Positions 3,282-31,269 of a stretch of 32,000 nt of DNA are shown in pieces; the stretch's first letter is position 1, and each line of letters begins with the position of its first letter. The DNA is from Candidatus Woesearchaeota archaeon (GTDB taxonomy: Archaea; Nanobdellota; Nanobdellia; SCGC-AAA011-G17; GW2011-AR17): assembly GCA_018302205.1 (NCBI GenBank), contig JAGVZZ010000021.1, positions 3,539 through 35,538 of the forward strand, written 5' to 3'. The notes beneath the pieces are model-generated. The model saw only the letters and a list, made by a program, of their open reading frames with translations. It searched no databases and had not been told where the DNA came from. Position numbers and translations under genes: made by a program.

Positions 3282-4432
3282 TGAAGTTTAAGGAAGTTTT
3301 CCCTCCAAATGCATATTCCGAGGCTGCTGCAGATAAAATCACTTATGCCCGTGATGGTTCTGAGTTTGAAGGTTTAGTCAAAGCTGTTGTATATCCAACT
3401 ACTAAAGAACAAATTGCAAACATGATAATGCTTGGCAAGTCTGAAAAACTTCATTTTACTATTCGTGGTGCGGGTACAAATACCTTAGGTGCATGCGTTC
3501 CAGCAAATTCTGTTGTTGTTGATTTATCCCGGATGAATAAAATTTTAGAAATGACAACTAATTCTGTTACAGTCGAACCTGGTGTTATCTTGAGTAATTT
3601 ATTAAAAGAAATCCAAAAGAAAGGATTATTTTTCCCAATCAAACCTTTAGAATACAAAGTTTGTTCTGTGGGTGGTTTAGTTGCAATGAACTCTTTTGGT
3701 TTGGATATTCGTTATGGCCGTGTTGAAAACTGGATTGAAGAGTTAGAAGTTATTAATGGTAATAATCAAAAATTAAAAATCTCTGGTCCACAACTAAAAG
3801 ACTTTGTTGGTATGGAAGGCACAACTGGAATTATTTTCTCGATTAAATTTAAACTTCTACCCGCACCTTTACCTAAGACCGTTTCAATTTTCAAATTCAA
3901 TACAATCTCTGCATTAATGGAAAAATACGATTTTGTTTCAAAAAATAAGCATGTAACTTCCGTTTATTTCCTTGATGAGTTTTGTTCTAGTTTCTTAGAG
4001 CTAGGCAGTTCATTACTATTGATTGTAGAATATGATAACGATAATGGTGTTATTAAAAATGATGAAGAGATTGCTAAATTAGATGGATTCATGGAAAAGC
4101 TTCAACATTTAATTATCAACAAAAAATATGTTTCTAAAGAGGATCCATATATTCCTATAGAAAATATCCCCAAATTTATCCAATGGTTAAGAAAGAATGC
4201 TATTCCTTGTTATGGATATATGCACCTTGGTATTTTCCATCCTTGTTTTAGGGAATCTTCCCCATTGAACACAGAATTATACAATATAGTCAAAATTCTT
4301 AATGGTTCAGTCCCTGGAGAATATGGTATTGGAATAAAAAGAAAACAATTCTTTTCAAATCCAAAATTATCCCGAATAAAATCCAATCACGATCCTAGTA
4401 AAATATTCAACAGAGGTGTTTTAATTGATTAA
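3278..4432 (+). CDS. FAD-linked oxidase, GlcD / D-lactate dehydrogenase-like
   Basis: FAD_binding_4-type motif 'IRGAGTNTLGACVP' and a C-terminal 'EYGIGIKRK' oxidase motif. GGAGGT lies 7 nt upstream of the ATG. Confidence 0.75.
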   Translation: MMKFKEVFPPNAYSEAAADKITYARDGSEFEGLVKAVVYPTTKEQIANMIMLGKSEKLHFTIRGAGTNTLGACVPANSVVVDLSRMNKILEMTTNSVTVEPGVILSNLLKEIQKKGLFFPIKPLEYKVCSVGGLVAMNSFGLDIRYGRVENWIEELEVINGNNQKLKISGPQLKDFVGMEGTTGIIFSIKFKLLPAPLPKTVSIFKFNTISALMEKYDFVSKNKHVTSVYFLDEFCSSFLELGSSLLLIVEYDNDNGVIKNDEEIAKLDGFMEKLQHLIINKKYVSKEDPYIPIENIPKFIQWLRKNAIPCYGYMHLGIFHPCFRESSPLNTELYNIVKILNGSVPGEYGIGIKRKQFFSNPKLSRIKSNHDPSKIFNRGVLID

Positions 4433-10271: not shown

Positions 10272-10916
10272 ATGAAAGTTGATTTTGAAACCGCAGATAA
10301 TGTAAAAATAATTGCTAACTATTGGCCTTCAGATCATGATCGAGCAGTCATTCTTGTTCATATGATGCCGACAACAAAAGAATCCTGGACTCCATTTGCG
10401 GATTTGTTATCCTTAAATAATTTTGCAGTTTTAGCTTTTGATTTGCGTGGTCATGGTGAAAGTGTAATTCAGAATAATCAAAAATTAGACTTCCAATTAT
10501 TCATGGATGATGATCATAAAAAATCTTTATTAGATTTAGATGCTGCTGTAAATTTTCTGGATAAAAGAGAGATATTTATTATTGGTGCCTCAATTGGTGC
10601 TAATTTAGCATTATGGTATCAATCATTACATCCAAATATTAAAAAAACTGTTTTGCTCTCTCCTGGAATAAATTACCGTGGTATTGACGCGATTAAGATT
10701 GCAAAAAAAGTTTCTGATCAGCAACAAGTTTTCATGGTCTCCGGCGATTTTGATGGCTCTACCCCATTTACAAATACAATGATGTCCCAATCAATCGCTT
10801 CACTACTACCCCATGTTTATCATAAAAAAATTAACTCCTCAGCCCATGGTTCAAATTTATTGATTGATAATATCCAATTAATCCAAGAAATTATTAACTG
10901 GCTAAACGCCCCATAA
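10272..10916 (+). CDS. alpha/beta-fold hydrolase
   Basis: 'DLRGHGES' and the nucleophile elbow 'IIGASIGANLAL' (GxSxG), with a C-terminal 'SSAHGSNL' histidine region. Confidence 0.65.
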   Translation: MKVDFETADNVKIIANYWPSDHDRAVILVHMMPTTKESWTPFADLLSLNNFAVLAFDLRGHGESVIQNNQKLDFQLFMDDDHKKSLLDLDAAVNFLDKREIFIIGASIGANLALWYQSLHPNIKKTVLLSPGINYRGIDAIKIAKKVSDQQQVFMVSGDFDGSTPFTNTMMSQSIASLLPHVYHKKINSSAHGSNLLIDNIQLIQEIINWLNAP

Positions 10917-13900
10917 ATTATTCACTTTTCTTTTTATCTCTGCAACTTCTTTTAAAATATTAATCTCATCGGTTGTCAAGAATTTTTTAAATTCTTTTAA
11001 CTTTTTAAAATTATTCTCATTCATATCTACATAAAAAATATCCTCTTCATGAATCTGTCTACCGGCAGTTACACCTGGGATTGATAATGCTACTTGGATT
11101 CCTCTTTCAGCTTCTTTCACGGACTCTTTTTCATATTCGATAGTTTTAATGTGCCCTACAACATCTCCGTTATTTTTAATCAAATCTACATCTGGTCTTA
11201 ATGTCCCTGAGATAATTTCAACTCCAATTACACAAGGATTATTTTGTCTAAATGTACATCCTCTCAAAAATTTCACTTTGGCTGGCCGGATTAAATATTG
11301 TAATTCTTTTTCCTCTTCTTTTTTTGTCTCTTCATCTCTCCATTTTTCTAAATCTTCAATCAATTGATAAATAACATTATGTGAAATTACTTTGACTTCC
11401 TTAACATCTCCTGCATCAATATTAAAACAAAGTATAATTTTATTTAATAGGTCTTCAGAGGCCTGTGCATCAATGATATCTTTCTTTGTGATTATTCCGA
11501 CGGATGCTTTTTTAAATGGAATATTTCTATCTTTTAACATCCCAATGACTGCCTCTAATGATCCTAAAGAATCTGCTTTTACAACTATCCCTTCACTGTC
11601 TGTCTCCATGACAACTTCTTCAACTTCTTCTTGAATCTTTTTTCTTAGTTCTTTTTCATCATTATTGATTACAAAGATCGGCATTCCTGCAACAACTTCT
11701 TTAATTCCAACTGCATTCACTTTAACACCTGCAGCGGCAACAACTTCTTTCACTGGCCCATATTTATTTTTTTCGTCCGGTAAAAATAAACCTTTGACTT
11801 TGGTTACAACTGGTTCATTCAATCCTCCAATTATAATTGGATCATTAACCCTAATTTTCCCTTCGTAAATAATTACATCCAAACAAGTCCCCAGGCCTTG
11901 CTCTTCTTTTACTTCTAATACTGTCCCCTTTCCTGCTGCGTTTGAATCTAATTGCAAATTTTCTTCTAAGTATTTTAATGCTAATCCAATTAATACCATC
12001 AATAATTCTGGTACACCCTCTCCATTCTTTGCAGAGCAAGGTACGATTGCAATAGTTTTTGTATAATCATCAACTCTATCAAATCTATCTGCTTGAATAC
12101 CCAAACTATACAATTTACCGACGATTTCATATAATTTAGTTTCAATCACTGTTTGCACTTGTGATGACTGTTTTGAAATCATATCTAAAATGAACTTAGA
12201 ATCAACAGCCTTCCAACCGTTTAACAAATCTAATTTATTTAATGCTATTACGAATGGTGTTTTGTAAGTTTTAAGGATTGCAATACACTCTTCTGTTTGT
12301 GGTTTAATTCCTTCATTAATATCAATAACTAATACTGCAAGGTCTGCTAAGTTCCCACCCCTTTTTCTCATATTACTAAATGCTGCATGCCCAGGAGTAT
12401 CAATAAAAACCAATCCAGGGATATCAATTTTTTTATTTTTTAATAAATCCCCACAAATCTTTTGTATTGTCTTTAATGAAATTGAAGATGAAGAAATCAT
12501 TTGTGTAATTGCTCCAGGTTCAGATTCAACTACTGCAGTCCTTCTTATGGTATCTAAAGTTTTAGTATTATGTATCAAAAATCCATTAGAAGTAAAATTT
12601 TGGTTAAATGGTTCAGAAAGATCATAAACATAATTACAATCAGATTGAACAACTTCAATATTTTTAATTTTAACAAAATGCACTTCTGTATTAAGTAAAG
12701 GTTTTAATGAATATAATTCATCAATTAATTTTTCGATATTTGTCGAATTCCAAAATTTTTTTATTGCTTTACCATATTCAGTAATTGAATATTTTTTTTC
12801 TTTTTTATTCCATTCAATTAAATTATCTGCAGAAAGCTCTCTTAAAAAATTATATCCTTTCCAGACTGAATTTAATCTTCTGATAATTTCAATTTGATTT
12901 CCGGTATTTTCAAGCATTTCTTTTTTGAATTGAATTTTTTTATATATTTCCCCTTTATTTCTTTGGCAAAACTCTACAAAATCATTCATTATTTGCTTAG
13001 TTAAATTCTGTTTTAATTCATAATTTTTCCAATATGGAATTTGAAGTTCATTTTGTGATAACCCTAATTTTATTCTTAATTCTCTAATATTTTCTTTTTC
13101 TATTGGGAATATATCTAATTTTCTACTAGAAACTGCTTTTTTTTCAATTTCAAACAAACGACTTTTTTTTCTTAATAATTTCAAATCCATAATTGCTTGA
13201 ATTTTTCCAAGTTCTTCTTTTCCAGATAAAATTAAATTATAATAATCTTTTCCATTAACTTTTTTTATATAATTATTTGGAGAACATCCTATATAATTAA
13301 AAAGTGTTGTTAAACTATCTGCAAATTGTTTACTTGCAGTACAAACTTCTAAAGTTCCTTTATTACAAACATATCCATCAGTATCATATAAACCAGATAA
13401 AAATTTTCCAATGTATTCTTCATCTGCAATTTGTATTATTTTAGGTAATTTTAAATTATTTGCTTTTTTTTCTATTGGAAAATCAAAGATTATTTGTAAA
13501 AATAATTTTAAAGTTTTTCCTCCTGAGTTTAAGATACTCTCTGATATATTTTTAGTTAAATAAATTTTTGAATTTAAATTTAGTTTTTGAAATATTCTAA
13601 TTACCTCTTTTTGAATTTCTGGATCTACATTTGTAATAGTACTATTTGCTGTTCCATCACCAAATAGAACTCCTATTAAATAAAATAAATCCTTATAATC
13701 TTCTTTTGTAACAGGGATTGTCATCCAATTAGAAGTATGTCCTACCCTCCATTTATTAGAAGAAGATTTTATTTCTACAATGTTTTTGGTTTTTATTTCA
13801 ATAAACTGTTTTAGTTCTTCAATATCTTGATTTCTATATCTATTAAATTTAACTTGCTCTCTATACTTGCTTAATATCTGCTTATTTCTTAATATTATTC

Positions 13901-14426
13901 CAATTTCAGCATTTTTATCAGTATTTAACTTGAATAATAAATTATTCTCTTCTAATAAATTTTTAACAGCAAAATCTCTTATTTGCAAATAATTCCAGGA
14001 ATCTCTAGGTATTACTTTAGGACAAAGTATATAATCTCCCTCTATAAGATCTTTAGCATTTTTTTCTTTTATTGTTAATTTATCTAAAATAAAAAATTTA
14101 TGTTCTTTAGTTGTTTTTATTTTATAACCTAATGTATTTGTTATCTTAATTAATTCATTTGGGCTTTTTAGTTTACAAATTCTATAAATTTTTTTTCTTT
14201 CAAATTTTTTTGAATTTAAATTAACACTAAACAAACATCTATTTGGTTTAATATAAAATCCTAATTTATCTTTTTCAATAATAACATCTTTTTCTTTAGA
14301 TAAAATCTCCCAAAAATCACCAATTTTAATAATTTCTCCATTTTCAAGAGAAATCAAACTATCTGGATGAATACATTTTCCACTATCAACATTTCCCATT
14401 ACCACTACTAAAGGTTGCCTTAACAT
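10902..14426 (-). CDS. infB: translation initiation factor aIF5B (IF-2 type GTPase) carrying one intein
   Basis: The extein reads 'VVVMGNVDSGK|TKTLDTIRRTAV..ITQ..IPGLVFIDTPGHAAFSNMRKRGGNLADLAVLVIDINEGIKPQT..ALNKLD', which is collinear with aIF5B. 1174 aa minus the 603-aa intein gives a 571-aa host protein. Confidence 0.9.
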   Translation of the reverse strand: MLRQPLVVVMGNVDSGKCIHPDSLISLENGEIIKIGDFWEILSKEKDVIIEKDKLGFYIKPNRCLFSVNLNSKKFERKKIYRICKLKSPNELIKITNTLGYKIKTTKEHKFFILDKLTIKEKNAKDLIEGDYILCPKVIPRDSWNYLQIRDFAVKNLLEENNLLFKLNTDKNAEIGIILRNKQILSKYREQVKFNRYRNQDIEELKQFIEIKTKNIVEIKSSSNKWRVGHTSNWMTIPVTKEDYKDLFYLIGVLFGDGTANSTITNVDPEIQKEVIRIFQKLNLNSKIYLTKNISESILNSGGKTLKLFLQIIFDFPIEKKANNLKLPKIIQIADEEYIGKFLSGLYDTDGYVCNKGTLEVCTASKQFADSLTTLFNYIGCSPNNYIKKVNGKDYYNLILSGKEELGKIQAIMDLKLLRKKSRLFEIEKKAVSSRKLDIFPIEKENIRELRIKLGLSQNELQIPYWKNYELKQNLTKQIMNDFVEFCQRNKGEIYKKIQFKKEMLENTGNQIEIIRRLNSVWKGYNFLRELSADNLIEWNKKEKKYSITEYGKAIKKFWNSTNIEKLIDELYSLKPLLNTEVHFVKIKNIEVVQSDCNYVYDLSEPFNQNFTSNGFLIHNTKTLDTIRRTAVVESEPGAITQMISSSSISLKTIQKICGDLLKNKKIDIPGLVFIDTPGHAAFSNMRKRGGNLADLAVLVIDINEGIKPQTEECIAILKTYKTPFVIALNKLDLLNGWKAVDSKFILDMISKQSSQVQTVIETKLYEIVGKLYSLGIQADRFDRVDDYTKTIAIVPCSAKNGEGVPELLMVLIGLALKYLEENLQLDSNAAGKGTVLEVKEEQGLGTCLDVIIYEGKIRVNDPIIIGGLNEPVVTKVKGLFLPDEKNKYGPVKEVVAAAGVKVNAVGIKEVVAGMPIFVINNDEKELRKKIQEEVEEVVMETDSEGIVVKADSLGSLEAVIGMLKDRNIPFKKASVGIITKKDIIDAQASEDLLNKIILCFNIDAGDVKEVKVISHNVIYQLIEDLEKWRDEETKKEEEKELQYLIRPAKVKFLRGCTFRQNNPCVIGVEIISGTLRPDVDLIKNNGDVVGHIKTIEYEKESVKEAERGIQVALSIPGVTAGRQIHEEDIFYVDMNENNFKKLKEFKKFLTTDEINILKEVAEIKRKVNNLWGV
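12567..14375 (-). mobile_element. 603-aa intein with LAGLIDADG homing-endonuclease domain, inserted in the aIF5B P-loop (GK|T)
   Basis: Starts at Cys18 (TGT, 14373-14375; block A 'CIHPDSLISL'). Block B is 'TTKEHKFF'. Two LAGLIDADG motifs ('LIGVLFGDGTA', 'FLSGLYDTDGYV'). Blocks F/G 'VYDLSEP..NGFLIHN' end at Asn (12567-12569), followed by +1 Thr. Length is 1809 nt and in frame. Confidence 0.85.
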
Positions 14427-21950: not shown

Positions 21951-23207
21951 TTACACAGTTACCATCTGTTTTACACAGGCCTCAAAATCTAACTTAATCC
22001 CTAACTCAAAGCTCTCTTGATTTAAGACACAAAGATTATGTACGAGGACTTTTGTAAGCAATTCATTCTTCTCGGCTTCAAAAGATTTAGTATGTAACTT
22101 GTTGCCAAATCTTGTTTTAAGCATGTGAAAATTGGTTTCAACATTACTCCTGCAATGATACTTTTGCAGATATTCTTCCTGGTTTATTTGAAACGCTCTG
22201 AACATTTTATGCCAAGTTTCAGATCCTTTTGCTTTTCCAGTTGCATTTTTTTTGAATGGGATATAAGGAATTAAGCCTAGAGCAAAAGCTACATCAAGAT
22301 TTTTTCTTGAGCTATAAGCTAAATCTGCAACTACAGTTTTAGCATCAATATATTTTTTAGAATTTTTAAGTAGACTGGGGAACTCAGTTGGATCAGCAAC
22401 ATTCTTTTTAGTAATTGAAACTTTAACAAAAATATTAGTTTTAGTTCCAATACACGCATGAAGTTTAAGCCATTCTCTTTCCTTACCTTCGAATTTTCCC
22501 CATTTATATTCTGACCATTGCGAGTACATATTTTTAGCAAAACCTGACGAGTCAATTGCAAGGTTTTCTTCAAGTGAAGCTAATGGTAGACTAGAAATTG
22601 TAATTAGCTCTTCTAATATTTTTGTAAGACTAACATCTGAAAAATAATTACTTAAAGTTTTATAGCAAGGGACTTTGGAAATAAATCTATTATCATTAAT
22701 ACTTTTTAAGATTGAAATTGTTTTTCTAAAACTTCCTCCAAAATAAATATGTATTATCATGCAGAATAATTCTTCTCGTAATTTGAATTCCTTTTGTGAA
22801 TATGGGCTATTAAGATAAGTTTCTATTAATTCTGAAGCTAATGATTTTACAATTCCAAACTCATTACTCTTAGCTTGTTCATAAGCTGGCCAATCTTGAG
22901 AGTAAGTTTTTTTGATTTTTGTAGCAACTTCTGGAGGTTTTGGTTTTTCTAAAGGCAGTTCTTGTTGAATAGAACAATCTACTTTATCCATTAAATCTCT
23001 GATCTTATTTAGGCTAATATCTTCTTTTCGAATGATTTCCTCTTCTGGAATTAATGTTTGCTGCTTCCAATAATGCTCATCGCATCCTAAATTGATTATG
23101 TCCTTATTTCCCATCATTTCAATTGAAAATAACCCTCTCTTTATATAACTTTGGTACTTTTCCCTTATTTTAAATTGAATTTTAAAGAGAAATCCTAATA
23201 AATCCAA
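21951..23207 (-). mobile_element. IS4/IS5-type DDE transposase gene (copy A)
   Basis: DDE context 'LAIDSSGF', 'VVADLAYSS' and 'YHCRSNVETNFHMLK' (Y-2-R-3-E-6-K). The listed start is TTG; ATGs at 23117 and 23114 are more likely starts. Confidence 0.8.
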
Positions 23208-23240: not shown

Positions 23241-23447
23241 ATGTCAAAAGAGGTTATTAACGATCAAAAACAAAAAATAATAAAGGAAATTCAAGTAGGA
23301 AACGACAATAGACAATTTATTTTGCGTATCCCTACGAGAATATCTGATAAAACTATACTTGATAATTTTAAAAAAAGTTATGTTGCTGAAGTTGAATATG
23401 ATCCTTCAATAAAAAATCAAATAATAGTGAGGTTTAAGAATGGCTAA
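23241..23447 (+). CDS. small AbrB/SpoVT-like (swapped-hairpin) candidate DNA-binding protein
   Basis: 68 aa. 'RQFILRIPTRISDKTIL' resembles the AbrB/MazE beta-hairpin DNA-binding motif. Its stop overlaps the next ORF's start (ATGGCTAA). Confidence 0.35.
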   Translation: MSKEVINDQKQKIIKEIQVGNDNRQFILRIPTRISDKTILDNFKKSYVAEVEYDPSIKNQIIVRFKNG

Positions 23448-23643
23448 TATAGGATTAAAACCTTTTGAGTATACTATTTATTGTTTTCTTAAGAACGGCA
23501 GTGGTGATGGATACACAATTGCAGAAATTGCAACTTCAACTTATATGGATAGAAAAACTGCAAGTAGTTGGACAGGAGCTTTGGTAAAAAAACATCTTGT
23601 TAAAACTAGAAAATCTCGAGGAAAAATACTTTATTATATTTAA
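23440..23643 (+). CDS. small winged-helix (MarR/TrmB-like) DNA-binding protein
   Basis: 67 aa. 'GYTIAEIATSTYMDRKTASSWTGALVKKHLVKT' has the helix-turn-helix plus wing layout. Confidence 0.45.
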   Translation: MANIGLKPFEYTIYCFLKNGSGDGYTIAEIATSTYMDRKTASSWTGALVKKHLVKTRKSRGKILYYI

Positions 23644-23675: not shown

Positions 23676-24374
23676 TTAACATCTGTGGATTGTTATTGAA
23701 TCAACATAATCAATATTAAATCTAAATGTCTTTATAGCTTCTTTTCCACTTTCATTTCCCTTGCAAGTAATAATATATTTTGCTTCTTTGGGCATTTTAT
23801 CTTTTTCGTATTCTAATTCTAGATATAACCCATATTTATCTTTAGGTAGTACATAATCATATCTAAAGTGAAAAGTATTAATCTCATTGAGTTCATCATC
23901 GTAATATTCTTCTTCTTTACAAGTTACTCCTTCATATTCAATTCCTTCAAAATAATCTAAATCATTGAGAGTATAAACAAAAAGAACTACACCCCCATAA
24001 TTATCTTTTTCAATTCCATATCCTTCTGGTTCCCCATAATACTGTTTAAATAATGATAATTGAATATTATTGCTATTTTTATTTTCTAAATTTTCAATAT
24101 TAGAATAAACCATAAAACCTCCACTACAAATAGTAAATTCATCAGTAGTCCCACCATCTACCATCATATTTTCAGAATTCCAAGGAATTATATTTTCTTC
24201 CGATTTCGTTGTTTCGGTAATTATTTCATCACTATCACAGATACTATTAGAATTTGAATCTAAACAACAACTTTCTCCAACTAGAATATATGGAGCATTA
24301 CAAGTAATTTCATTAGAACAACCAGCAATAAATAATAAACCTAATATCCATCCAGCAAGTATAATTATTTTCAT
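23676..24374 (-). CDS. lipoprotein-like secreted hypothetical protein
   Basis: Signal peptide with a lipobox-like 'LFIAGC', then a Cys-rich stretch 'CNAPYILVGESCCLDSNSNSICDSDE'. Confidence 0.5.
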   Translation of the reverse strand: MKIIILAGWILGLLFIAGCSNEITCNAPYILVGESCCLDSNSNSICDSDEIITETTKSEENIIPWNSENMMVDGGTTDEFTICSGGFMVYSNIENLENKNSNNIQLSLFKQYYGEPEGYGIEKDNYGGVVLFVYTLNDLDYFEGIEYEGVTCKEEEYYDDELNEINTFHFRYDYVLPKDKYGLYLELEYEKDKMPKEAKYIITCKGNESGKEAIKTFRFNIDYVDSITIHRC

Positions 24375-24391
24375 CTAACCAGTACCAATAC

Positions 24392-24403
24392 GTTACATGT
24401 AAC
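24392..24403. promoter_or_regulatory. perfect 12-bp palindrome gttacatgtaac upstream of the RHH gene (candidate operator)
   Basis: Read directly. Lies about 10 nt upstream of a TATA-like ttaataag (24413-24420), which is about 25 nt from the ATG at 24441, as expected for a leaderless archaeal promoter. Confidence 0.3.
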
Positions 24404-24440: not shown

Positions 24441-24587
24441 ATGCGTAAGAACTATGCGAATGTAAGTATTCCTTCAGAATTGATAGAGCTAATAGAAAAA
24501 ACTTGGAAAAAGAGTAAGAAAGGCTACAGAAGTCGTGCAGAGTTCGTTATTGAAGCTATTAGAGAAAAGATTGATAGAGAAAAATAA
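24441..24587 (+). CDS. unlisted 48-aa ribbon-helix-helix (CopG/Arc-like) protein
   Basis: My translation: MRKNYANVSIPSELIELIEKTWKKSKKGYRSRAEFVIEAIREKIDREK. It has the RHH layout of a beta-strand (NVSIPSEL), helix 1, and 'GYRSRAEFVIEAIRE' as helix 2. A T7 run follows the stop. Confidence 0.6.
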   Translation: MRKNYANVSIPSELIELIEKTWKKSKKGYRSRAEFVIEAIREKIDREK

Positions 24588-24656
24588 TTTTTTTATTCTA
24601 ATTTGAATATTTTGTATTAAAAAGATTTATATATAAATTTAGGTTGAATAAATAAT

Positions 24657-25595
24657 GTGAAATGTTATCCTATTGAAGAATTGTCTGATGATGAATTTGA
24701 AAAATTAGTGAATATTATCTGCCAAAGAATTTTAGGTTCCGGCCTGGTTTCATTTACAAAAGGTAAAGATGGTGGAAAAGATGGGAGATTTGAAGGAATA
24801 GCTCAAAAATATCCTAGTGACAAATCACCTTGGAGTGGAAGATTTATTATTCAATCAAAACATACAAATAATCCTATTGCAAGTTTCTCAGATCCTGATT
24901 TTGTGAATATTATAAATAAAGAAATTCAAAGAATAAAGATTATAAAAAGCTCTGAAGCCATAGATAATTATCTTATTTTTACAAATAGAAAACATACAGG
25001 TATAATTGGAGATAAATTAATTCAAAAGATTAAAGAAGAAGTAAACCTGAATAATGTTGAGATAATTGGTTTAGAAGATATAAATTTAGTTTTAAGACAA
25101 AATAATGATATTGTTAATATATTTGATCTTGAAAACTTAAAAAATCCTTTAAGAATATCTCCTGATGATGTAAAAGAGGTAATTATTGCATTTGACACAA
25201 ATAAAAATGAAATATACCCCAAAATCTTAATTGACCCTTTTAAACACATTGATATAGAAACAAAAAATAAAATTAATCAATTAAATGAAGATTATTTTCA
25301 ATTTATAAAGGATCGTTCACAGGTTTATTTTAAACAAATTGCTGATTTTTTGGGGGATCCTAAAAATAAACCTTTTAATGAAATGTATGAAAATATCATA
25401 GATGAATTACAAGCAAAAATAATTACAAATAGAAAGGACTTTGGAGATTTTAATTTCATCTTAGAATATTATTATGATTATATACTTATTCATTGTCCAG
25501 AACTTAAAAAAATCAAAAGATTAATTAGGGTATTTTTACATTATATGTATTGGAGTTGTGATATAGGTAAAAAAGAGGATGTTAAAGCCAACTAA
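24657..25595 (+). CDS. Mrr-like PD-(D/E)xK nuclease domain fused to a helical C-terminal domain (candidate LmuA/ABC-3C effector)
   Basis: 'DEFEKLVNIICQRILG', 'GKDGGKDG' (aa 36-43), 'FIIQSKH' (aa 63-69) and 'YLIFTNRKHTG' follow the Mrr catalytic-core order. GTG start; TATA-like tttatatataaa lies at 24626-24637. Confidence 0.6.
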   Translation: MKCYPIEELSDDEFEKLVNIICQRILGSGLVSFTKGKDGGKDGRFEGIAQKYPSDKSPWSGRFIIQSKHTNNPIASFSDPDFVNIINKEIQRIKIIKSSEAIDNYLIFTNRKHTGIIGDKLIQKIKEEVNLNNVEIIGLEDINLVLRQNNDIVNIFDLENLKNPLRISPDDVKEVIIAFDTNKNEIYPKILIDPFKHIDIETKNKINQLNEDYFQFIKDRSQVYFKQIADFLGDPKNKPFNEMYENIIDELQAKIITNRKDFGDFNFILEYYYDYILIHCPELKKIKRLIRVFLHYMYWSCDIGKKEDVKAN

Positions 25596-25815
25596 ACATA
25601 TGGACTTGGATTGTTCGGTAATAAAAATTACTGCTGATATAATTAAATTATTAAGTAAACAAAAGATTATTGAATATACAGATTTATTAAATCAATTAGA
25701 AAATATCAACGGCAAAGATGTCAAATATAATTTAGTTTCAAGTTTAAATATATTATATCTTTTAGGAAAAATTAGATATCATGCTAAAGATGATGTATTC
25801 GAGATGATACTATGA
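25579..25815 (+). CDS. 78-aa helical 'middle component' (candidate LmuC/ABC-3C MC)
   Basis: Small ORF wedged between the effector and the ATPase. Its stop overlaps the ATPase ATG (ATGA, 25812-25815). An alternative start exists at the ATG at 25600. Confidence 0.5.
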   Translation: MLKPTKHMDLDCSVIKITADIIKLLSKQKIIEYTDLLNQLENINGKDVKYNLVSSLNILYLLGKIRYHAKDDVFEMIL

Positions 25816-27608
25816 AGCTTAATAAACTTTATTCAAACAAGAAAGAAATATTTGAAGATATTATTTTTAATAGTGATTTTAATGTAATTTTTGCAAAAGT
25901 TAAAAAACCAAAGGATTCTTCTAAAGATTCTCATAATTTGGGTAAATCTTTACTAATCGAATTAATTGATTTTATGCTTTTAAAAAGTTTTAAAAAAGGT
26001 CTATTTTTAAAAGATAACTATAACTTGTTTGAAGATTTTATTTTCTATTTGGAAATAAAAACAAATGATGATAAGTTTATTACTATAAAAAGAGAAGTAT
26101 CAAATAATAGCTATATATGTTTAAAAATTCATTCACAAGGATATCAGGATTTTCGTAATGAATTTGATTCTTTTTGGGAGATATCTAATATATCATTTGA
26201 AAAGGCTAAAGAAGAATTAAATAAATTACTAAATTTAAGCTCCATTTATCCCAAATGGGATTATAGAAAGGGTTTAACTTATTTTTTAAGAAGTCAACAG
26301 GATTATAATGATGTATTCCAAGTTAGTAAGTTTTCTGTTGGAAAACATCTTTATTGGAAGCCTTATATGGCCAAAATCCTAGGATTTAATGAATATTTAA
26401 TTGAACAAAAATATTCCAAAGATAATAAAATCTCAGAAAAAGAAACATTTAAATTACAATTTGAAGAAACAGTATCTATTGATCCTCAAGATTTTGATAA
26501 ACTCCAAGGTGTAATAAAAATAAAAGAAAAGGAATTAGAACAAAAAGAACTTAAAATAAATCGTTTTAATTTTTACGAAAAAGAAATTGAATTAAATAAT
26601 TCTTTAACCAATGATATAGAAGAAAACATTTCTGAATATAATACCCAATTATATAGAATAAATTATGATATTGATAAAATTCAAGAAGCTTTGAATAATA
26701 AAATTAATTTTAACCTTGATGAAATAAAAAAAGTTTATGAAGAGGCAAAGATTTATTTTTCAACAAAATTTGTTAATGATTATTCTCAGCTTATTGAATT
26801 TAATAAACAACTTTTTGATGAACGATCAAAATTTTTAAAAATTAAGCTTGAAGAATTAAACAAAAATAAAACTGAGATTAACAAAAATCTAATCCATTTA
26901 AATACTAAAAGAGAAGAGATATTATCACTTATACAGGATAAGGATAGTTTTTCTAAATTTAGAAAACTTCAGGCAGAGCTTATTGAGGAAAAAACACAAT
27001 TAATTAACTTAAAAAAAGAATTAGAAAACTTAAATCATTCAGATCAGATTCAAAAGACCATTAATAAATTGATAGAACAAAGAGATGAAATTATTAATAG
27101 TATTAAGGAAATGATTAAAAATAGTAATCAAATTTATGATACTATTCGTTATAACTTTAATGATATAATTAAAGACATTTTTGGAATACCAGCAATTCTA
27201 TCCATTAGAATTAATGGAGAAGGAAATCTTGATTTTATTGCTAATTTTGTTAAAGATGAAAAAGATTTAATTAAAACTAGTGAAGACAAAGGAAATACCT
27301 ATAAAAAGATTCTATGTGCTGCATTTGATTTATCAGTATTAATAACTTATTCAGATAAGTCTTTTTTTAGATTTGTTTATCATGATGGAATACTTGAGAG
27401 CCTAGATGATAGAAAAAAAGTTTTAATTTTAAAAAAAGTAAAATCTCTTTGTTCTATATACGGGATACAATATATATTGACCACAATAAATCATGATCTT
27501 CCACGTGATGAAAATGGGAATATTTTAGAATTTAATGATAAAGAAATTGTCAAATTGCTACATGACGATGGAAATGATGGTAGATTATTTAAAATGGACA
27601 AATTTTAG
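25812..27608 (+). CDS. SMC/Rad50-like coiled-coil ABC ATPase, DUF2326/YydD-like (candidate LmuB)
   Basis: N-terminal head 'MKLNKLYSN..FNVIFA..SHNLGKSLLIELIDF' (Walker A-like). About 200 aa of heptad-rich coiled coil. C-terminal head 'SEDKGNTYKK..FRFVYHDGILESLDDRKK' (Walker B/D-loop-like). Confidence 0.65.
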   Translation: MKLNKLYSNKKEIFEDIIFNSDFNVIFAKVKKPKDSSKDSHNLGKSLLIELIDFMLLKSFKKGLFLKDNYNLFEDFIFYLEIKTNDDKFITIKREVSNNSYICLKIHSQGYQDFRNEFDSFWEISNISFEKAKEELNKLLNLSSIYPKWDYRKGLTYFLRSQQDYNDVFQVSKFSVGKHLYWKPYMAKILGFNEYLIEQKYSKDNKISEKETFKLQFEETVSIDPQDFDKLQGVIKIKEKELEQKELKINRFNFYEKEIELNNSLTNDIEENISEYNTQLYRINYDIDKIQEALNNKINFNLDEIKKVYEEAKIYFSTKFVNDYSQLIEFNKQLFDERSKFLKIKLEELNKNKTEINKNLIHLNTKREEILSLIQDKDSFSKFRKLQAELIEEKTQLINLKKELENLNHSDQIQKTINKLIEQRDEIINSIKEMIKNSNQIYDTIRYNFNDIIKDIFGIPAILSIRINGEGNLDFIANFVKDEKDLIKTSEDKGNTYKKILCAAFDLSVLITYSDKSFFRFVYHDGILESLDDRKKVLILKKVKSLCSIYGIQYILTTINHDLPRDENGNILEFNDKEIVKLLHDDGNDGRLFKMDKF

Positions 27609-27763
27609 TTGGATTATAAATATTAACTTAACAATAACTTTTTTAATAAACTTATTATTTATGTACAAATCGCAACTTTTAGCTCTATAGAGATATAAGC
27701 AAGGTTAACATAAAAGCTAATATTAATTCTATTTTTATTCAAATAATTTAAAGTATTATTCAA

Positions 27764-28267
27764 TTACTTTGGTTCTTTGATATTTATTTCATAGGCTATA
27801 ACCTTTTGATTAACTCCTTGTAATGAATAAATTATCCAAAAAAGTAAACTTACTGAGCATATTAATAATATTAGACTCCATTTTGCTAGTTCTAGCCCTA
27901 AAAATAATGAACTTGGGGATAGTAATGAAAAACAAGAAAGAAGAATTGATGAAAAAATGGCAATATAAAATAGTTTCATTCTTTTCTGGGCATCATAGAA
28001 TTCCCATTTTGTTGAATAATCTTTTTCTAATTCTTCTGCAAAGTTTTTTAAAAAATCTATTGATTCTTGAGAATCTTTGTCCATTGCTATTTTAGGGCTT
28101 ACTTCCTGAATCCAATTAAATATTTTCTTCTTGATTTTAGAATTTAAATCATCATTATATTTGTTAAAACGATCTAAAAATTCTTTTTTATTAAAATAGG
28201 AATAAATTATTTGTGCAATTAATACTAAAAAGGAAACACCAAAATTAATGTAATCTAATGCGACCAT
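27764..28267 (-). CDS. multi-pass membrane protein, hypothetical
   Basis: 167 aa: an N-terminal TM helix, a roughly 75-aa charged helical segment, then two or three C-terminal TM helices. Lies 40 nt downstream of the nuclease gene on the same strand. Confidence 0.4.
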   Translation of the reverse strand: MVALDYINFGVSFLVLIAQIIYSYFNKKEFLDRFNKYNDDLNSKIKKKIFNWIQEVSPKIAMDKDSQESIDFLKNFAEELEKDYSTKWEFYDAQKRMKLFYIAIFSSILLSCFSLLSPSSLFLGLELAKWSLILLICSVSLLFWIIYSLQGVNQKVIAYEINIKEPK

Positions 28268-28307: not shown

Positions 28308-28745
28308 TTATAAAACTGGTTTTCTAGTAATCTCTTCAGGAATCCTGTACTCTTGCCATTTAACTCTTCCAGATAGAATAGCTTCTTTAAGATTCTTCTC
28401 TTGAGGTGATAACTTTGAAGCTCCGCTTTTGACTTCAACAAAGATGACTTCTTCAATCTGCTTTTCATCCATACCTTTGAAAACTACAAAATCTATAGGT
28501 TTCCCAATGAATCTACATTCTGTTGGTGAAAAGTCAAAGTTTGGTAAGAAAGGTGCTAATTGTTCACTAAATTGGCCTCCAAGAACAGCTCTAGACTTAG
28601 CAATAGCATCTTTTCTGTGATTAGGTAACTCTTGTAGCCATTGTTGGTCTTTTTTATAGGATCCGATTTTTTGTCCCAAATAGTATGCAACTCCAATTCC
28701 TAAAAGGAAAAGCAAAGCCAGAATAATTGTTGTGAATTCTACCAT
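28308..28745 (-). CDS. membrane-anchored PD-(D/E)xK endonuclease related to archaeal Holliday-junction resolvases (COG4741/Endonuc_Holl-like)
   Basis: N-terminal TM helix 'IILALLFLLGIGVAYYL', then 'SRAVLGGQFSEQLAPFLP..IGKPIDFVVFKG..VIFVEVKSGASKLSPQEK', which gives a D..E-V-K core. Confidence 0.6.
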   Translation of the reverse strand: MVEFTTIILALLFLLGIGVAYYLGQKIGSYKKDQQWLQELPNHRKDAIAKSRAVLGGQFSEQLAPFLPNFDFSPTECRFIGKPIDFVVFKGMDEKQIEEVIFVEVKSGASKLSPQEKNLKEAILSGRVKWQEYRIPEEITRKPVL

Positions 28746-28843: not shown

Positions 28844-29851
28844 CTAGAAATGTGGCTTTGCGTTGTAAAGCATCATCGCTTCGACCAATACTGAAATGTT
28901 ATGACAGCAAACCTTGCACATAATCTCATTCTCTTTGGTGGTATCACAATGTCCTCTAAGAGTGTTTCCAAACTTTCTTTTAATCATTGAGAAAGTTGAT
29001 TCTGCATTTGAACGCTTGTGATAATGCTCCTTGAACTTGTCTAAGTTGTTCTTCCACATTGAAACCATCTCATGCCAAGCAATAGAACCTTTTGCTTGAG
29101 CAGTAACATTCTTCTTAGGCATTATGTAAGGCGATGCTCCTATGCTTCTAGTTGAATCGCAGTTGTCTCTAGAAAGATAACCCGCATCCGCAGAAATTTC
29201 TTCAATCTTGAATCTCTTGGTGGTATCATCTAGCAATGGCTTGAGGTAAGGACTATCATTACAAGTTCCTTCTGTAACATAAGCAGAAACAATTACATTA
29301 GTCTTCACACCACAAATCATATGCAGTTTTCTATAATCCTTATGCACCTTGAAATCTAACCTGATTTCTTTCCATTGTTTTTTATCGAGAGTAGAAAAGC
29401 CAGTTGCATCAATGGCAAAATATTTTTCTAGTTCTTTCATAGGAATAGATAGCTCTTTCATTATAGCCTCAAGTATGTAAACTATTTCTGGATCTCCCAA
29501 ATATTTGAGAATAGTATTGAAATGATAGACTTTGTCTATGTATCCTAATCCTTTGAACATAATTAATTCTGAATTCAATCTTCTTGCAGAAATGTTATTG
29601 TAAGATTTAACCAACAATGATTTTATCATATCATTAATTTCAACAGAAGGTCTGCCATTAATGGGCTTATTTTGCAACTGCAAATAATTAACAACATCAT
29701 TGATTATCTTGTAAGCCAAAATTCTTTCTTGAGTTTGATACAGATTATATTCAGTCCATTGTCTATCTTGTTTTGGAGTTTCAACTACTTCTTTCTCCTG
29801 AATCTCTTCGTTGTTGCCTTCGTAGGGGAGGATTATTACGTTTTGTTCCAT
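28844..29851 (-). mobile_element. IS4/IS5-type DDE transposase gene (copy B, paralog of copy A)
   Basis: 'FAIDATGF', 'ISADAGYLS' and 'YHKRSNAESTFSMIK' (Y-2-R-3-E-6-K). Collinear with copy A at roughly 40% identity by eye. Visibly more G+C-rich than its neighbours. Confidence 0.8.
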
Positions 29852-29950: not shown

Positions 29951-30039
29951 CTCCCGAAATAAAATAAAATAATGGCAAGTTTTATATATAAGTAATATAT
30001 ATTAAGATTATAATATGAAAAAAAGGGGGCTTGTATTAT

Positions 30040-31269
30040 ATGGATGAATACAAAAATATTTGGGAACTATATGGTTTAAAGACAAATCCCTTTTTTACAA
30101 ACCCTCTTCTATTATTTGGGGGAGATATTGATATTAAATTAGCATTTATTGGTAGAGAATATGAAGTTAAGAGATTACAAAATTTAATTTCAAATAATAT
30201 TAGTGGAAGAGTTATTGTTGCTGGTGATGTTGGAGTAGGAAAAACTACTTTTGTAAACTTTGTAAGAAGCAGTGTTCCAGATAAAGTTTTTTTTACACAT
30301 CTAAAAGAAATAGCAGTACAACCAGAATGGGATGGAATAGATTTTATATTAAATACTTTATCTGCAATATATACTACAATTAAATTAAGATTAGATATAA
30401 ATCCTAAATTTATTGATGAAGAAATCCTAAAAAAATTAGAACTTCTTGTTGATATTGTAGAAAGAAAAAATTATAGTATTTCTTTAAATATAGGTGTTAT
30501 TGGTGGAGGATATGGATCAAATACAAATATCAGTATTCCTTCATTAACAATTCATTCTCTTCAAGTTTTTTTTGAAGATTTAATTAGAGAACTTAAAAAA
30601 GTGGGATATAAGGGTGTTGTTTTACATTATAATAACTTAGAAATAATAGAAGAGCCTAAATTAAAAATTAAAAGAGTCGAATCAATTATGTCAGAATCTC
30701 CAATAATATTAGAAAATTTATCTATTACTGAGCTTAAGCAATTATTAGATAAAAGAATACAATATCTAAATATAAGCGGTTTGGATTCAATAAAGCCTTA
30801 TGAAGATGAAATAATTACAAAACTATATCAATTATATAATGGAAATTTAAGATCTATATTAAATAGCCTTTCTACAGCATTTAATGAATTAGTTATTGAT
30901 AATAGACCAACAATTATGAATTCTGAAATATTAATTAATACTCTTTCAAATACAGCTAAAAAAAGATGGTTAGATAAAATTACAGATACTGAAAAAGAAG
31001 CTCTTTTTTTAATACTTAATTCTGGTGAAATCACTAATAAAGAGATTGCTCAATCTTTAAAAAAACAAAAACAAAATATTTCTAAGATTACAAATAGGCT
31101 ATTAGATATTTATGCAATAAAAATAAAACGAACTGATGGAAAAGAAAAATATTTTACTGTTGATTCTTCTATAAAATGGTTTTTATTGGAAAAAGAAAAA
31201 AAGATCTTAGGAAAAAATAACTTAACTAAAAATATACAAAATGAAATTCAGAAAATATTACCTAACTAA
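30040..31269 (+). CDS. P-loop NTPase (Arch_ATPase/AAA_16/Orc-Cdc6-like) with C-terminal MarR-type winged helix
   Basis: 'NPF..FIGREYEVKRL' lead-in, Walker A 'GDVGVGKTTF', 'GNLRSILN' sensor-like motif, and C-terminal 'LTDTEKEALFLILNSGEITNKEIAQSL..ISKITNRLLD'. Start moved to the ATG at 30040, which has GGGGG 10 nt upstream. Confidence 0.55.
   Translation: MDEYKNIWELYGLKTNPFFTNPLLLFGGDIDIKLAFIGREYEVKRLQNLISNNISGRVIVAGDVGVGKTTFVNFVRSSVPDKVFFTHLKEIAVQPEWDGIDFILNTLSAIYTTIKLRLDINPKFIDEEILKKLELLVDIVERKNYSISLNIGVIGGGYGSNTNISIPSLTIHSLQVFFEDLIRELKKVGYKGVVLHYNNLEIIEEPKLKIKRVESIMSESPIILENLSITELKQLLDKRIQYLNISGLDSIKPYEDEIITKLYQLYNGNLRSILNSLSTAFNELVIDNRPTIMNSEILINTLSNTAKKRWLDKITDTEKEALFLILNSGEITNKEIAQSLKKQKQNISKITNRLLDIYAIKIKRTDGKEKYFTVDSSIKWFLLEKEKKILGKNNLTKNIQNEIQKILPN

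Follow-up and report, generated by a model that had tools for sequence, protein, structure and literature searches.

On the forward strand of contig JAGVZZ010000021.1 (assembly GCA_018302205.1), from a Candidatus Woesearchaeota archaeon of the DPANN group, three tightly coupled genes encode a predicted nuclease, a small protein and a coiled-coil ATP-binding cassette (ABC) ATPase. The window analysed is a stretch of 32,000 nt (positions 3,539 to 35,538 of the contig), and all coordinates given for this contig are positions within that window. The effector gene (24657-25595, 312 aa) begins with a GTG codon and ends, as read directly from the sequence, with the TAA at 25593-25595. It is followed by the gene for the small middle component (25579-25815, 78 aa) and by the ATPase gene (25812-27608, 598 aa). 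In-frame ATG codons of the small open reading frame (ORF) lie at 25579, giving a 17-nt overlap with the effector gene, and at 25600, leaving a 4-nt gap; public gene calls on identical metagenomic contigs start from ATG 25600 (71 aa), and several close relatives use the overlapping 78-aa form. The tetranucleotide ATGA at 25812-25815 combines the stop of the small ORF with the start of the ATPase gene. A fourth co-oriented gene (24441-24587, 48 aa), coding for a ribbon-helix-helix (RHH)-like protein, stands in front. These four co-oriented ORFs and their tight junctions had been pointed out in an earlier reading made from the letters of the stretch (hereafter the sequence-only reading), and their coordinates are confirmed here. 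We conclude with good confidence that the trio at 24657-27608 is a canonical ABC three-component (ABC-3C) conflict system, belonging to the DUF2326/YydD branch and located on a mobile patch of the Woesearchaeota chromosome that is flanked by insertion sequences.

Another ORF of 51 aa (27535-27690, forward strand) overlaps the 3′ end of the ATPase gene in a different frame. Public callers give a 42-aa product there on identical contigs; in such AT-rich sequence the call is probably spurious.

Domains of the effector, middle component and ATPase

The effector, which takes the place of LmuA, is built of two parts. Its C-terminal 140 or so residues (aa 163-304; 25143-25568) match PF20279, CTD12, with E=1.2e-34 (120 bits, cutoff 25). 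Pfam names this family ‘C-terminal domain 12 of the ABC-three component systems’, and it is matched by all 21 aligned effector homologues. The all-helical tail of about 140 aa described in the sequence-only reading is this presumed docking domain, and it forms a helical bundle behind an alpha/beta head in the AlphaFold2 (AF2) model (pLDDT 78). The head (aa 1-158; 24657-25130) carries the conserved motifs GKDGGKDG (aa 36-43), IIQSKH (aa 64-69) and FTNRK. The family alignment shows no variation at E15, D38, Q66-x-K68, H69, T70, N110 and R111, and hardly any at D42. Pfam Mrr_cat (PF04471) is matched in 11 of 21 effector homologues (best E=7e-6), the present copy scoring 16.4 bits (E=0.0098) and therefore staying below the cutoff of 21 bits; the N-terminus of PADLOC PDC-S73 matches the effector with E=4.6e-13. 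Foldseek matches of the effector model include YydB, Avs4, LmuA, SfsA, EcoT38I, the FokI cleavage domain and Can2. Those to PD-(D/E)xK nucleases reach probabilities of 0.8-1.0 with E-values of only 3e-3 to 0.1, and the one to Avs4 presumably reflects the Mrr-like N-terminal nuclease of that protein. Given the invariant residues, the fold matches and the Mrr_cat hits among its members, the head is assigned as an Mrr-like PD-(D/E)xK domain, in line with the sequence-only reading, and a nuclease is predicted, even though the present copy alone is below the Pfam threshold.

The small protein, equivalent to LmuC, matches two ABC-3C middle component (MC) families of Pfam, PF20295 (MC8) with E=1.9e-10 (41 bits, cutoff 25) and PF20293 (MC6) with E=3.2e-8 (33.9 bits, cutoff 27.2). 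Its gene sits between those of the effector and the ATPase and overlaps both.

The third protein, equivalent to LmuB, had been described as a DUF2326/YydD-like ATPase with a split ABC head, and both family and fold are borne out. Its C-terminus (aa 456-596) matches DUF2326 (PF10088) with E=1.2e-22 (80.5 bits, cutoff 28.7), and the PADLOC model PDC-M68B matches it from end to end (aa 3-593 against model positions 2-577 of 581; E=1e-51, 174 bits). The family motifs KDSHNLGK[ST] and F[VTI]YHDGxxE, invariant or nearly so in 255 members, both occur in the present ATPase, and the stretches SHNLGKS and FRFVYHDGILESLD quoted in the sequence-only reading are present and conserved, as are the effector motifs that it listed. 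The AF2 model (pLDDT 86, pTM 0.70) consists of an N-terminal head half with the P-loop (aa 1-190; 25812-26381), a long antiparallel coiled-coil arm (aa 194-457; 26391-27182) with a small helical apex at aa 296-323, and a C-terminal head half (aa 458-598; 27183-27608). The modelled helices of the arm span residues 194-220, 225-251, 254-295, 302-315, 324-375, 379-437 and 440-457, making the coiled coil about 260 aa long and not about 200 aa as estimated before. In the C-terminal head half, a loop is followed by helix 495-512, strand 521-525, helix 533-550 and strand 553-559. The top Foldseek match in the PDB is the integrative YydD-YydB model 9a6c_A (E=8e-22, TM 0.60-0.62, probability 1.00). Next come LmuB chains in LmuACB-DNA complexes (1e-13 to 1e-11) and then SMC heads, Rad50 and JetC, all with a probability of 1.00. 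At the level of sequence profiles, searches of PDB sequences with the ATPase and effector alignments returned only spurious coiled-coil matches or none.

Counting residues over 255 full-length family members allowed us to judge the unusual active site of this ATPase. Position 39, where the canonical Walker A motif has its first Gly, is Asp in 205 of the 255 members, and Gly is not among its five commonest residues. The Walker A motif of the present ATPase reads D-S-H-N-L-G-K-S, against a family pattern of D-x4-GK[S/T], with H41 and K45 conserved in all members and G44 in 253. Q162, which follows a short strand and is a candidate for the Q-loop, is conserved in 248. A degenerate signature, T489-S-E-x-x-G494, lies at the N-terminus of helix 495-512 (T489 in 236, G494 in 253). 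In the Walker B motif, FVYHD525, the Asp is invariant and the next residue (526) is Gly in 243 members; E529 is Glu in 230 and Asp in 16 more. At the H-loop position, 561, only 68 members have His, and D562 is found in 222. A CxxC zinc hook in the coiled coil was found in none of the 255. The sequence-only reading had singled out the Walker A motif without its leading Gly and the missing LSGGQ signature as peculiarities of this locus. Both are near-invariant traits of the DUF2326 family, and there is nothing special to the archaeal copy in them. These residues point to slow or altered hydrolysis at the degenerate active site, a property proposed earlier for short LmuB in structural work on Lamassu.

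Conservation and genomic setting of the three genes

Relatives of the trio are numerous. The homologues of the ATPase number at least 490. Almost all have 588-598 aa and full-length identities of 38-50%; most are bacterial, from many phyla, and some are archaeal. Their annotations read ‘DUF2326 domain-containing protein’ or ‘YydD’, with ‘YydD (DUF2326 family)’ as the JGI label. Among 1.84 billion cluster representatives, an exhaustive profile search found 2,315 members with E<=1e-3, of which 684 reach E<=1e-30. The effector has hundreds of full-length relatives (305-315 aa) at 41-50% identity, and up to 77%, some of them already named ‘ABC-three component system protein’. On bacterial plasmids, the NCBI annotation pipeline PGAP names the same trio ‘ABC-three component system protein’, ‘...middle component 8’ and ‘DUF2326 domain-containing protein’; none of the three has an equivalog in NCBIfam.

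When 185,579 species were scanned, each represented by a single genome, 540 relatives came up, and co-conservation was analysed in the best 80 of these species-level loci using hidden Markov models (HMMs) built from our own alignments. An MC homologue lies directly upstream of the ATPase gene in all 80, usually with a 4-nt overlap, and an effector with CTD12 lies upstream of the MC gene in 78. One of the two loci without CTD12 is on a short contig with no room upstream, and the other is unexplained. The linkage of the three genes, which the sequence-only reading had made a touchstone for its proposal, is therefore strict. The same nuclease head is found in about 68 of the 80 loci, and others have an HNH or DUF4062-like head on CTD12. 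Such an exchange of heads is typical of ABC-3C and Lamassu effectors, and the modularity of the effector is shown by these loci. Homology E-values lie between 1e-34 and 1e-51 and the genes are co-conserved in 80 genomes, which places them far beyond chance.

These results uphold the identification of the locus as an effector, small protein and coiled-coil ABC ATPase module of the ABC-3C/Lamassu superfamily. What does not hold is its description as ‘highly’ or ‘extremely divergent’, or as ‘related but distinct’: the proteins pass curated thresholds, relatives at 38-50% identity number in the hundreds, and PGAP names the whole trio. The sequence-only reading had allowed that a confident hit to existing models would remove the novelty and leave the function in place. 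Such hits exist for the ABC-3C Pfam families and PDC-M68B and not for the LmuB models; the novelty is gone and the proposed function is unaffected. The locus is a real but ordinary copy of a catalogued candidate immune system, neither highly divergent nor of a new kind. It offers little for discovery, as Pfam, PGAP and PADLOC already recognise every gene of the trio and the family has thousands of members. Its modest value is in documenting a DUF2326-type ABC-3C system in a DPANN archaeon (Woesearchaeota), one that bacteria apparently share and that appears to travel on mobile DNA.

The host is indeed a DPANN archaeon, as had been supposed. Among the genes of the window are those for aIF2-gamma, aIF5B with an intein, an Ogg-HhH 8-oxoguanine DNA glycosylase and DnaK/DnaJ, and its aIF2-gamma is 100% identical to an NCBI protein from ‘Candidatus Woesearchaeota archaeon’, the named relatives being mostly from Woesearchaeota and Nanoarchaeota. 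The intein of the aIF5B/IF-2 gene (10902-14426, reverse strand, 1,174 aa) includes a LAGLIDADG homing endonuclease (Intein_splicing 5e-28, LAGLIDADG_3 1.7e-10). An AT-rich, DPANN-like host had been counted among the unusual features of the locus, but Woesearchaeota copies of the module are already in NCBI. The closest species-representative relative, L005 (contig CAZQXW010000054.1, 26% GC), is labelled ‘uncultured Thermoplasmatales archaeon’ and is 71% identical. Because all other matches among the top 80 genomes are bacterial, the next being only 49% identical, a small AT-rich archaeal subclade derived by inter-domain transfer is suggested.

Several features mark the module as part of a mobile patch. 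Its GC content is 22-23%, compared with 27-32% in the flanks, and two related DDE_Tnp_1 transposase genes (21951-23207 and 28844-29851, both on the reverse strand; 31% identity, E=4e-44) bracket a patch of about 5.6 kb. A composite transposon was considered and rejected, the transposases being merely 31% identical and DNA repeats of at least 40 nt being absent from the window. A 335-aa ORF at 1546-2553 is unrelated to the flanking transposases.

Relatives of the trio are found in the company of other defence genes. On a Woesearchaeota contig (L092, 5845-8797; JGI 3300051636) the trio lies inside a type I restriction-modification (R-M) locus, beside GmrSD and Cas1, flanked by a split HsdR and, at its opposite end, by HsdS-HsdM; one defence system is here clearly nested in another, again in a DPANN genome. 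A relative at 73% identity (L087, 1-7794; 31% GC) lies directly downstream of a BREX system (PglX-like methyltransferase, PglZ, BrxL). In other genomes the trio stands beside DpnI and a Polbeta/HEPN pair (L093), or beside a DNA methyltransferase, type IV secretion system (T4SS) genes and an integrase-like gene (L085). Additionally, it occurs on 27 plasmids, 21 of them conjugative and many from Agrobacterium, and in none of 50,697 phage records. Such contexts are the classic signature of a mobile defence gene set, and the type I R-M, BREX, DpnI and GmrSD genes around or next to relatives support a role in defence.

Proposed mechanism, alternatives and neighbouring genes

The whole of the mechanism that we propose for the trio is inferred from structures of Lamassu LmuACB and DdmABC, for which an LmuA1B2C1 assembly, sensing of DNA ends and CTD-mediated tetramerisation of LmuA have been described (bioRxiv 10.1101/2025.04.02.646746, 10.1101/2025.06.23.660979). 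By analogy, the coiled-coil ATPase, probably as a dimer, would hold one or more effectors as inactive monomers through their helical CTD12, and the small MC protein would serve as an adaptor or DNA-contact subunit. The trigger could be an abnormal DNA structure introduced by an invading virus or plasmid, such as free ends or replication intermediates. Nucleotide-dependent movements of the heads during the ATP cycle would then release the effector, and the freed effector would oligomerise through its CTD and thereby assemble an active nuclease site. Cutting of DNA by the Mrr-like nuclease would finally destroy the invader or the infected cell, with abortive infection or loss of the element as the outcome.

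Some observations weigh against this reading of the trio as an ABC-3C defence system of Lamassu-like mechanism. We found no functional study in the literature on DUF2326, PDC-M68, PF10088 or YydD, and PDC-M68 itself is a bioinformatic candidate in PADLOC, not a validated system. The link to Lamassu is remote by sequence, with an E-value of 3e-5 for the LmuB HMM and no solved LmuB at E<=1. The ATPase active site is also unlike those of both Lamassu classes, having Asp in Walker A, Asp-Gly in Walker B and no conserved His in the H-loop. Owing to these departures in the active site, ATP hydrolysis, and hence the release step, may work differently from Lamassu.

One alternative is that the locus is a bona fide Lamassu of the short type II (LmuA-LmuC-LmuB) with an Mrr effector, and belongs to no separate branch. 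The gene order and the three roles are the same, LmuB is the closest solved fold of the ATPase after the YydD model (E=1e-13), and LmuA chains (9nxx) are among the fold matches of the effector (E=7e-3). Lamassu systems with an Mrr effector are known, the mean length of short LmuB proteins is about 600 aa, and CTD12 has been assigned to type I LmuA. Reviews place ABC-3C systems in the Lamassu superfamily, and the broad use of ‘Lamassu’ by some authors would include the present locus. The PADLOC LmuB models, however, score only 21 bits (E=3e-5) and 10 bits (E=0.043) on the ATPase, against 174 bits for PDC-M68B, and in a search with the DUF2326-family profile none of the solved LmuB sequences was matched at E<=1. 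The published definition of LmuB asks for a Walker A of Gx4GK[S/T] and a Walker B of hhhhD[Q/S/T/E] (short) or hhhhDD (long) (bioRxiv 10.1101/2025.04.02.646746), whereas the DUF2326 family has D-x4-GK[S/T] and hhhhDG (243 of 255) and differs in the H-loop as well. We therefore regard membership in Lamassu proper as unlikely.

A further possibility, which we put forward tentatively and consider rather improbable, is that the DUF2326 branch of ABC-3C is mechanistically distinct from Lamassu. It would then work as a slow or non-hydrolysing nucleotide-gated switch with a trigger of its own, guard DPANN cells against elements exchanged with the host archaeon, and have its expression set by lineage-specific regulators such as the RHH protein. 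The idea arises because the family lacks the first Walker A Gly, the catalytic residue after the Walker B Asp (a Gly there, followed three residues later by a conserved Glu), the H-loop His and a zinc hook. To our knowledge, the viruses and plasmids of DPANN episymbionts are almost unknown.

The mobility of the trio could also be taken to mean that mobile genetic elements use it selfishly, for addiction or competition, like a toxin-antitoxin pair or in the exclusion of plasmids or integrative and conjugative elements (compare the anti-plasmid DdmABC). Its main role would then be the maintenance of such elements or competition between them, and not antiviral immunity of the host. The carriage on mostly conjugative plasmids, many of Agrobacterium, the T4SS and integrase-like neighbours in L085, the transposases that bracket the present copy and the absence of phage carriage all fit this. 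Yet several chromosomal loci lie in or beside type I R-M, BREX, GmrSD or DpnI, no conserved partner resembling a cognate antitoxin is found, and anti-plasmid and anti-phage roles are compatible in Lamassu. A mainly selfish module is, in our estimate, very unlikely, and a role in defence is preferred.

The gene upstream of the effector was listed in the sequence-only reading as a dedicated RHH gene. A 48-aa gene does stand there, co-oriented and 69 nt upstream of the effector, but it is present only on this contig and its domain matches are below threshold (RHH_1 of Pfam, E=0.003; YlcI_YnfO_N of NCBIfam, E=3.9e-6). From these matches the RHH assignment is plausible. Homologues of the protein were found by jackhmmer, on both strands, only in L001-L003, which are the same contig from other metagenomes. 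None was found on either strand near the trio in about 85 other related loci, including relatives at 70-79% identity, in which the RHH position holds an integrase-like gene, BREX brxL or nothing. About 6 of 76 other loci have, immediately before the effector gene, a small XRE-type helix-turn-helix (HTH) gene that is not homologous to the RHH gene. They form a single proteobacterial subclade (L090, 2497-2820; L065, L071, L076 and L078, 4462-4782), which includes a Burkholderia plasmid where the XRE-type gene overlaps the effector start by 4 nt, with the addition of L026 (4614-4823), which has a different HTH gene in the equivalent position. Non-homologous regulators are thus recruited upstream on occasion, and the RHH gene may be one of them. 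Upstream of the RHH gene, the divergent intergenic region of 66 bp contains a perfect 12-bp palindrome, GTTACATGTAAC (24392-24403), which was considered as an RHH operator and set aside, being a single copy in the window, not above chance and absent before the effector gene. That the RHH protein is an integral regulator or antitoxin gating the nuclease, in an RHH-controlled four-gene variant of ABC-3C, is hardly credible: its position and orientation, and the recurrent recruitment of regulators seen with the XRE-type genes, are outweighed by its absence from the other loci, by the T-run that follows its stop and separates it from the trio, by the sub-threshold domain matches and by the lone, unrepeated palindrome. 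Because it is absent from all other related loci, the RHH gene is a neighbour or lineage-specific addition, at most a local transcriptional regulator, and not a component of the system.

Other neighbours of the trio are described here for completeness. Just downstream lie a multi-pass membrane protein gene (27764-28267) and, at 28308-28745 (reverse strand), a gene for a 145-aa protein that combines an N-terminal hydrophobic helix with PF10107, ‘endonuclease related to archaeal Holliday junction resolvase’ (E=3.7e-36); the PF10107 protein was not found beside the trio in relatives. Two overlapping small genes at 23241-23643 (forward strand), of 68 aa and 67 aa, the second with weak winged-helix (TrmB/HTH_36) matches, sit between a transposase gene and an ORF for a Cys-rich, lipoprotein-like protein of 232 aa (23676-24374, reverse strand). 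They are kept on all copies of the contig and are possibly cargo of the same mobile patch. Further downstream, at 30031-31269 (forward strand), a 412-aa protein joins an N-terminal AAA_16 ATPase domain to a winged helix of MarR/TrmB/TFIIE-like type at its C-terminus; in public gene calls its start lies further upstream (440 aa), and it could be an Orc1/Cdc6-like or mobile-element ATPase. Scans of the window for tRNA genes and Rfam families gave no matches.

Comparison with known systems

The YydB-YydD pair of B. subtilis (PDB 9a6c) ranks first among the fold matches of both the ATPase (E=8e-22) and the effector (E=7e-4), although identity in the structural alignments is merely 16% for YydD and 12% for YydB. 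The YydB chain has 481 residues against the 312 aa of the present effector, so its head is probably different. According to its title, 9a6c is an integrative model of YydD-YydB from crosslinking mass spectrometry and deep learning, and by extension it points to direct contact between ATPase and effector in the DUF2326/YydD family. No function of YydBCD is reported in the searchable literature.

In PADLOC, the closest entry is PDC-M68, whose component B covers the full length of the ATPase. Neither the effector nor the MC protein of the window matches PDC-M68A at E<=1, and the CTD12 of a bacterial orthologue does so weakly (E=9e-4). With component A matched weakly or not at all, the PDC-M68 candidate was probably defined on a sister effector subtype.

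Type II (short) Lamassu and DdmABC of V. cholerae come second in structural similarity. The trio has the A-C-B architecture of Lamassu, with an LmuA-type effector and an LmuC-type small subunit. Both combine an SMC/Rad50-like ATPase of about 600 aa and short coiled coil with an effector made of an enzymatic head and a helical CTD, and in Lamassu, too, the zinc hook may be absent. Beyond the ATPase motifs, they differ in the middle component, which has 78 aa here and at least 149 residues in V. cholerae (LmuC K149 is cited), and in the CTD family, which is CTD12 here and CTD7 in type II Lamassu. Type I Lamassu (LmuA-LmuB of Bacillus cellulasensis) shares the CTD12 reported for its LmuA, and its LmuAB-DNA structure 9ux7_A matches the ATPase with E=1.4e-9, but it consists of only two genes, lacking the middle component, and its nuclease head is of the Cap4 kind. 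The ATPase of type I Lamassu is from another Pfam family, DUF3732. In the literature, type II Lamassu has been equated with ABC-3C and CTD12 assigned to the LmuA of type I (bioRxiv 10.1101/2025.06.23.660979).

The closest likeness of all is to the ABC-3C systems. All four of their defining features are found in the trio and its relatives: an effector whose C-terminus falls in one of the families CTD1-12, an MC between effector and ATPase, a coiled-coil ABC ATPase, and a conserved trio with swappable effector heads. The three proteins pass the curated CTD12, MC8/MC6 and DUF2326 thresholds, and the gene order, the overlapping junctions, the lengths of about 310, 78 and 597 aa and the modularity of the effector head agree as well. 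Nothing in the architecture differs; only the Woesearchaeota host, the very low GC content and the RHH neighbour set the locus apart. The DUF2326 branch of ABC-3C was reportedly defined computationally by Krishnan, Burroughs, Iyer and Aravind in 2020. It is widespread and has an oddly degenerate ABC active site, while structures and mechanisms are already available for its Lamassu cousins, and a bacterial orthologue offers a much easier entry point than the archaeal copy. We rejected the label ‘highly divergent Lamassu’, as the curated ABC-3C models match strongly and the LmuB models do not. Since the ATPase departs from LmuB in both HMM scores and motifs despite the Lamassu-like architecture, the locus is best placed in a sister branch to Lamassu proper, inside the wider ABC-3C/Lamassu superfamily.

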